In this document: in pieces, positions 26,381-27,140 of the stretch | How positions within the stretch are numbered: the stretch's first letter is position 1 | Layout of the letters: every line of letters starts with the position of its first letter | Assembly (NCBI RefSeq): GCF_003334405.1 | Contig: NZ_QOWM01000002.1 | Length of the DNA: 64,000 nucleotides | Reading direction: 5' to 3' (one strand) | Origin: Escherichia coli | Lineage (GTDB): Bacteria > Pseudomonadota > Gammaproteobacteria > Enterobacterales > Enterobacteriaceae | Notes under the pieces: model-generated | The model's database searches: none | What the model saw: the letters and a program-made list of their open reading frames with translations, nothing else | What the model was told of the DNA's origin: nothing | Made by a program: the position numbers and the translations under genes

Positions 26381-26757
26381 GAAGCTGACCAGACAGTCGC
26401 CGCTTCGTCGTCGTCCTCTTCGGGGGAGACGGGCGGAGGGGAGGAAAGTCCGGGCTCCATAGGGCAGGGTGCCAGGTAACGCCTGGGGGGGAAACCCACG
26501 ACCAGTGCAACAGAGAGCAAACCGCCGATGGCCCGCGCAAGCGGGATCAGGTAAGGGTGAAAGGGTGCGGTAAGAGCGCACCGCGCGGCTGGTAACAGTC
26601 CGTGGCACGGTAAACTCCACCCGGAGCAAGGCCAAATAGGGGTTCATAAGGTACGGCCCGTACTGAACCCGGGTAGGCTGCTTGAGCCAGTGAGCGATTG
26701 CTGGCCTAGATGAATGACTGTCCACGACAGAACCCGGCTTATCGGTCAGTTTCACCT
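26381..26757 (+). ncRNA. rnpB: RNase P RNA component (M1 RNA)
   Basis: Reads GAAGCUGACCAGACAGUCGCCGCUUCGUCGUCGUCCUCUUCGGGGGAGACGGGCGGAGGGGAGGAAAGUCCGGGCUCC... and ends ...GGUCAGUUUCACCU, with the conserved P4 region (AGGAAAGUCCGGGCUCCAUAGGGCA) present. Confidence 0.95.
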
Positions 26758-27025
26758 GATTTACGTAAAAACCCGCTTCGGCGGGTTTTTGCTTTTGGAG
26801 GGGCAGAAAGATGAATGACTGTCCACGACGCTATACCCAAAAGAAAGCGGCTTATCGGTCAGTTTCACCTGGTTTACGTAAAAACCCGCTTCGGCGGGTT
26901 TTTGCTTTTGGAGGGGCAGAAAGATGAATGACTGTCCACGACACTATACCCAAAAGAAAGCGGCTTATCGGTCAGTTTTACCTGATGTACGTAATAAACC
27001 GTTCCGGCGGGTTTCAGATTGTTGA
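26709..27025. repeat. Tandem array of about 113-bp repeats derived from the rnpB 3-prime end and its terminator (about 3 copies)
   Basis: Units beginning gatgaatgactgtccacgac at 26709, 26810 and 26923; copies 2 and 3 are 113 bp apart; the third copy has a degenerate terminator (aaaccgttccggcgggtttcag). Confidence 0.9.
26767..26797 (+). terminator. rnpB intrinsic terminator
   Basis: aaaaacccgc-ttcg-gcgggttttt hairpin followed by gcttttg; the same hairpin recurs about 113 bp downstream and degenerately once more. Confidence 0.8.
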
Positions 27026-27040
27026 GTGCGCTTTATTCAT

Positions 27041-27140
27041 GCCGGATGCGGCGTGAACGCCTTATCCTGCCTACAAAAGCACGCAAATTCAATATATTGC
27101 AGAGATGGCGTAGGCCTGATAAGCGTAGCGCATCAGGCAT
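27041..27140. repeat. REP/BIME element
   Basis: gccggatgcggcgtgaacgccttatcctgcctac and inverted gtaggcctgataagcgtagcgcatcaggc. Confidence 0.8.

Follow-up and report, generated by a model that had tools for sequence, protein, structure and literature searches.

Analysis of a 64,000-nucleotide stretch of Escherichia coli DNA (contig NZ_QOWM01000002.1, referred to here as the window) revealed that rnpB, the gene for the M1 RNA of RNase P, is followed directly by a tandem array in which the last 49 nt of the gene, its T1 terminator and a spacer are reiterated. We conclude that this is probably a non-coding array of the rnpB 3′ end, trailer, T1 and spacer, which has been shaped by unequal exchange and supplies back-up bidirectional terminators.

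The rnpB gene was identified by a full-length match to the Rfam RNase P RNA family (318.6 bits), and the array begins 49 nt before its end (Table 1). The 17-mer GATGAATGACTGTCCAC, for which 0.15 chance occurrences are expected in the window, was found without mismatch at the three unit starts that an earlier note on this DNA had given, and an alignment (A1) bore out its statement that the units are copies of the last 50 nt or so of rnpB together with the terminator. Tandem Repeats Finder reported a period of 113 bp between 26735 and 27014 (2.5 copies, 94% matches, score 504), which is the period proposed in that note; it does not apply to the first interval, as units 1 and 2 start 101 bp apart and the native ACAGAACC is aligned with GCTATACCCAAAAGAAAG of the repeat units across a 12-bp gap. 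Behind the B-box of unit 1 follow the mature 3′ end, an AU-rich trailer, the T1 hairpin, a T-rich run directly after it (GCTTTT, 26791-26796) and the spacer.

Table 1. Features of the rnpB 3′ region in the window
Feature	Position	Strand	Basis
rnpB (M1 RNA, RNase P RNA class A), 377 nt	26381..26757	+	Rfam RF00010; RefSeq annotation of identical loci concurs
Unit 1 (native, 101 bp): gene end, trailer, T1, spacer	26709..26809	+	
Unit 1 A-box GATGAATGACTGTCCAC	26709-26725	+	
Unit 1 native linker GACAGAACC	26726-26734	+	
Unit 1 B-box CGGCTTATCGGTCAGTTT	26735-26752	+	
T1 hairpin AAAAACCCGC-TTCG-GCGGGTTTTT	26767..26790	+	Folding, -19.4 kcal/mol, z = -4.5
Unit 2 (113 bp), pseudo 3′ end	26810..26922	+	Alignment, repeat search
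Unit 2 insert-bearing linker GACGCTATACCCAAAAGAAAG, 12 nt longer than native	26827-26847	+	
Unit 2 B-box	26848-26865	+	
T2 hairpin, identical to T1	26880-26903	+	Folding, -19.4 kcal/mol
Unit 3, intact pseudo 3′ end, degenerate terminator	26923..27024	+	Alignment, repeat search
Unit 3 insert-bearing linker	26940-26960	+	
Unit 3 B-box	26961-26978	+	
Third hairpin (unit 3)	26993-27017		Folding, -6.8 kcal/mol, z = +0.5
BIME, two inverted REPs around a linker with a sub-threshold ES036 match	27041..27138		Dispersed REP copies
REP 1, ends CTAC	27041-27074		
REP 2, begins GTAG	27110-27138		
Remnant unit: B-box-like GCGGTTGCCATCAGTTTCA (27145-27163) and broken terminator AACCCGCGTCAGTGAGTTTTTGCTTTTGG (27164-27192)	27145..27192	+	Repeat family D2, 87%
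Terminal partial unit start AAGATGAATAAATATCTACGG	27203..27223	+	Repeat family D3, 80%; locus comparison

In terms of M1 RNA structure, the A-box corresponds to J18/2 and the 3′ strand of P2, and the B-box to the 3′ strands of P4 and P1. The J2/4 linker is 12 nt longer than at the native end in every repeat unit, and position C354 of native M1 RNA, in the established numbering, is a G in the repeat units. As all repeat units carry this G, none of them is a usable RNase P 3′ end. The 12-nt insertion falls at the J2/4 position where the Rfam consensus of class A RNase P RNA exceeds E. coli M1 RNA by about 12 nt; this coincidence of length may be due to chance, or may be a trace of an older, longer linker. 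On the far side of the array the convergent gene yhaC ends at 27258, and the rnpB-yhaC intergenic region is 500 bp long in the window. The 3′ end of yhaC itself contains an 18-bp tandem repeat (27313-27348, 2.1 copies, score 49).

Both T1 and T2 are GC-rich hairpins placed between an A-tract and a T-tract. They share the same folding energy, which was reached by none of the shuffled sequences, and T2 repeats T1 in hairpin and tail, including the U-rich run GCUUUU; with a stable GC-rich hairpin and a U-rich run behind it, both have the make-up of intrinsic (Rho-independent) terminators, and termination at T2 is predicted from this identity with T1. T1 and T2 fold on the minus strand as well (-15 kcal/mol), with UUUUU after the hairpin, so that both are predicted to act bidirectionally. 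The third hairpin does not have the properties of an intrinsic terminator, and to judge from its folding the third terminator is mutated and dead. The array thus holds two intact stacked terminators and one decayed one, as the earlier note had proposed in describing the terminator of copy 2 as perfect and that of copy 3 as degenerate. Folding was used here in place of a consensus terminator scanner, which misses T1 and T2 because its tail rule counts the T-run into the stem. Published experimental measurements exist for rnpB T1 as a terminator, and it has a nested A-tract/U-tail extension (PMC3643576). T1 was found in two forms, the short UUCG-loop hairpin of the window and a 7-nt longer AACGAAAACCCGCCAGCGTAAACCGGCGGGTTTTT (-19.6 kcal/mol), as noted at 1016-1050 of locus L003 and also in L006, L007, L013, L018, L032 and L060; both forms occur within E. 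coli. The tetraloop and long-loop types coexist and are shuffled among units and strains; in Kosakonia and in Enterobacter sp. Bisph1 both were seen together inside single arrays.

A BIME had been thought to follow the array. The element is real, consisting of two inverted REPs of a dispersed family: further REP copies lie at 41617, 62137 and 44698 of the window, and in E. coli genomes the median number of matches to a 611-bp query that included the BIME was 36. Its position, however, is inside the decayed tail of the array, which resumes behind it with a remnant unit and a terminal partial unit start. The terminator of the remnant (-9.1 kcal/mol, z = -0.7) does not fold as an intrinsic terminator should. 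The arrays of loci L007, L009 and L013 are without the BIME, which indicates that it was inserted later and does not belong to the repeat unit. In the single-copy strains that have yhaC (L010 and L011), T1 is followed by a short GGTGCACAGGGT-type spacer and then by the terminal partial unit start. Sub-threshold Rfam matches on the REP and the BIME linker (27030-27117) were to naRNA4 (31.4 bits, gathering threshold 59.5) and ES036 (32.7 bits, gathering threshold 37.6), both REP-derived RNA families. Two E. coli strains carry IS621 (IS110 family) in the second REP of the BIME, near 27112 in window coordinates (about 1270-1364 in L006 and 1410-1504 in L008); there the sequence diverges past GATGGCGTAG, and the IS621 transposase takes the place of yhaC as the next gene annotated.

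The rnpB 3′ region was matched in all 5426 complete E. coli genomes, with a variable span. Long BLAST queries gave ambiguous copy counts, as pieces were joined across repeats, and they were replaced by a 46-nt insert-specific probe. This probe detected 8219 places in 3630 of the 5426 genomes (1-8 per genome, median 2) and none on plasmids; about one third of the genomes (33%) are without an insert-bearing unit. With 0-8 insert-bearing units per genome the array is a variable-number tandem repeat, as anticipated when its copy number was suggested to vary between strains. In a systematic sample of 60 carriers, 1, 2, 3 and 4 units were present in 20, 14, 20 and 6 genomes, respectively.

Fifteen E. 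coli loci were dissected at the sequence level, and alleles with one to four unit starts were found. Four starts are present in the K-12 derivative MFDpir (L001), L005 and L008, three in the window and strain 99-3165 (L002), two in L003, L004, L006, L007, L009 and L013, and one in O157:H7 FRIK2533 (L011), strain 3150 (L010), N68 (L012), Nissle 1917 (L014) and SE15 (L015). In MFDpir the rnpB-yhaC region is 613 bp long, exactly one unit more than in the window, with three insert-bearing units versus two. Strain 124 (L009) and O157:H7 FRIK2533 have the same GarK protein and the same flank variant, but strain 124 has one unit more, which shows a recent change. Across 26650-27260 strain 99-3165 matches the window at 100% identity; its yhaC is truncated by IS1 (L002 1509-2411), whereas the window has an intact ORF of 395 aa (27258-28445). 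In N68, Nissle 1917 and SE15 yhaC is gone, and two short pseudogene fragments and no repeat units lie between rnpB and tdcR (about 1150-1320 in L012, L014 and L015).

Outside E. coli, 100,044 species representatives were scanned with a B-box pattern, followed by regex and nhmmer surveys. Of the 68 Enterobacterales species whose downstream DNA was long enough, 26 carry one or more pseudo-units, starting right after T1, and 42 have none. Within Escherichia the carriers include Escherichia albertii, E. whittamii and cryptic Escherichia lineages; other Enterobacteriaceae with units include Klebsiella pneumoniae, three Citrobacter species, Phytobacter massiliensis and four Kosakonia species, joined by two Enterobacter isolates and MAG UBA3516, and the Erwiniaceae are represented by Pantoea allii, P. 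wallisii, P. rodasii, Pantoea sp. A4, Erwinia mallotivora and Winslowiella arboricola. Across these species the period lies between about 107 and 134 bp. To our knowledge, neither an insert-bearing pseudo-3′-end unit behind rnpB across the Enterobacterales nor the match of its terminator to the T1 of each species has been described before. The two Salmonella enterica representatives that the genome-collection scan yielded, of subsp. diarizonae and arizonae, were both without a unit. In subsp. arizonae (L068) the T1 loop, just after rnpB, is split between CCCGCTTCGGCG and CTGAGGGATCCCC by foreign DNA with an inverted repeat, which looks like the insertion of a mobile element. A REP/BIME directly after T1 was seen in Citrobacter amalonaticus (L066), where a BIME-like block within the repeat brings the period to 211 bp, and in Kosakonia cowanii (L030), which has a tandem BIME array and no pseudo-units.

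All units share the A-box start and a homologous insert, with the consensus GCTnTnyATR followed by AAAGAAnG. A G at the position of C354 was present in 40 of 40 pseudo-units examined, including those in which adjacent positions seem to have been converted to the native form. Trailer and terminator of the native and the first pseudo-unit have an identity of 0.90 within a genome and of 0.72 between genera, and the terminator of the pseudo-unit matches each species' own T1. Native-like and pseudo-like states form mosaics at GAC/TCC and TTATCGG/TTACCGG, and the terminal units are the most divergent. Between genera the similarity of the core insert is 0.60 (shuffled 0.45), compared with 0.47 for the spacer (shuffled 0.44). 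The contrast between the two identities, the shuffling of hairpin types and the divergent terminal units suggest an old duplication followed by unequal exchange and gene conversion.

The comparison between genera also bears on whether the pseudo-3′-end unit is a selected RNA element like the RtT RNA of the tyrT operon, which we consider conceivable but doubtful. Read-through of T1 would in that case give an RNA of about 113 nt which ends in a terminator hairpin and contains the 3′ strands of P2, P4 and P1; with these it would be complementary to the 5′ portion of M1 RNA, and it could affect the folding, processing or turnover of RNase P RNA, or it could instead be a decoy for factors binding the M1 3′ region. 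The constant boundaries and homologous insert in species of both Enterobacteriaceae and Erwiniaceae, the conservation of the insert above the spacer and the invariant G agree with such an element, and the tyrT analogue was confirmed in a K-12 record, where the tyrT-distal repeats have a period of 178 bp and 3.1 copies, each unit with the last 19 nt of tRNA-Tyr. Conservation of the boxes, however, is explicable by conversion from the native gene; one third of the E. coli genomes, O157:H7 and Nissle 1917 among them, have no unit; and transcription of the units should be low, since each lies behind a strong terminator. RNAalifold on 16 species found a compensatory change in 0 of 13 predicted pairs (covariation term +0.32), and the sole pairing, of A-box with B-box, is made of invariant columns, so that a conserved RNA structure is not supported. 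The fold of the whole unit is unexceptional (z = -1.7), a promoter search of the units found none, and the units have no Rfam family above threshold and no annotated RNA product. TATACC in the insert was checked by hand as a -10 element and rejected, having neither a -35 element nor an extended -10; sub-threshold Rfam matches on the units (rnk leader, isrB, RsmY and rsmX) were rejected as chance, driven by the terminator. It is likewise rather unlikely that the insert-bearing module (A-box, longer J2/4 linker, G for C354 and B-box) is an ancient selected element of Enterobacteriaceae and Erwiniaceae that acts as RNA in T1 read-through, either as an RtT-like processed product or by serving as a non-competing decoy for the M1 3′ strands, with the G and the insert kept to bar it from replacing the true P4, P2 and P1 3′ strands in folding.

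Two further explanations are much less probable. Every unit contains ORFs with a Shine-Dalgarno-like GGAGG, such as the 38-aa ORF at 26811-26927, where the motif lies 9 nt upstream and the stop overlaps the start of the next unit's ORF in ATGA, and a few genome annotations sporadically list unit ORFs as hypothetical proteins. That the units encode small basic peptides is nevertheless very hard to credit, as no reading frame is conserved among homologous units: differences between units lie at second codon positions (R/H, G/D/V), a 1-nt deletion shifts the frame in Klebsiella, and the Kosakonia units stop after nine codons. No NCBIfam family matched the unit ORFs, and RefSeq leaves them unannotated. 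The wide differences among species in the DNA 3′ of rnpB, together with terminal partial units that stop near the mature 3′ end, might suggest integrative elements with a target at the rnpB 3′ end, of the sort known for tRNA and tmRNA genes, whose att-site duplications the copies would be. Such an origin is highly improbable, because successive units lie only about 100-134 bp from one another and enclose no element, no integrase is annotated beside rnpB in the 15 E. coli loci, the same unit boundaries and insert are seen in all genera, and a displaced gene end would be expected to be native-like and not insert-bearing.

A non-coding array with back-up terminators accounts best for these data. 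The comparisons above show that arrays gain and lose units and that trailers and terminators are homogenised to match the T1 of the same genome; the mechanism would be unequal homologous exchange or slippage between units, with gene conversion from the native copy. Units at the edge decay, as the window shows by its third terminator, which is dead, by the BIME inserted into the array and by the remnant beyond it. The effect in this strain would be that T1 is backed, 113 bp further on, by another intrinsic terminator, identical to it and bidirectional, which would stop transcripts reading through from the strongly transcribed rnpB and halt convergent yhaC transcription before it reaches rnpB. 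A purely neutral array does not readily explain the persistence of the units in Enterobacteriaceae and Erwiniaceae despite frequent loss, the greater likeness between genera of the core insert than of the spacer, and the invariant G for C354; these three points speak against pure neutrality and leave room for a functional reading.

The array is an unannotated and easily typed copy-number polymorphism beside an essential gene, and it explains differences in multiples of 113 bp among rnpB T1 constructs and among assemblies of the region. The earlier note had overlooked the 12-bp shorter native unit, the part of the array behind the BIME, the earlier description for K-12 and the spread outside E. 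coli. By itself the E. coli array adds nothing new about the species, and the comparative result alone could matter: in many enterobacterial genera the 3′ end of RNase P RNA persists as the same disabled copy behind rnpB, paralleling tyrT/RtT. Should the units prove to be made into RNA and selected, rnpB would be a second stable-RNA gene whose 3′ end is echoed by functional tandem copies.

The array is already known for E. coli. Reed and Altman (1983) reportedly described 113-bp repeats in the 3′ flank of the K-12 M1 RNA gene and compared them with the tyrT repeats, and Baer and Altman (1985) may have noted fewer copies in Salmonella. We take the array of the window to be this K-12 repeat. The two agree in locus, in the 113-bp unit and in content (the rnpB 3′ end and terminator, with small ORFs); the window array overlaps the last 50 nt or so of rnpB and has near-identical units, and the MFDpir sequence has the same architecture, the window having one unit fewer.

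The array also has features of other known systems. T1 and T2 resemble stacked or bidirectional terminators between convergent genes in their hairpins, A- and T-tracts and folding on both strands; unlike usual stacked terminators, T2 arose by duplication of a piece of the upstream gene and not independently, and the third copy is no longer a terminator. The BIME of the window is like other BIME/REP systems in its inverted REPs, GTAG/CTAC ends and dispersed copies, but differs in being a later insertion into the array, outside the repeat unit. In arrangement the array parallels that of tyrT. The RtT units, annotated in the K-12 record as "RtT sRNA, processed from tyrT transcript", are assigned a processed RNA and do not each have an intrinsic terminator, whereas the rnpB units are without an assigned RNA and have a terminator hairpin each, decayed in the third copy of the window. 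Both arrays are nevertheless tandem and lie directly behind a stable-RNA gene, and in both the unit begins with a copy of the 3′ end of that gene, so that in this respect the rnpB units are RtT-like.
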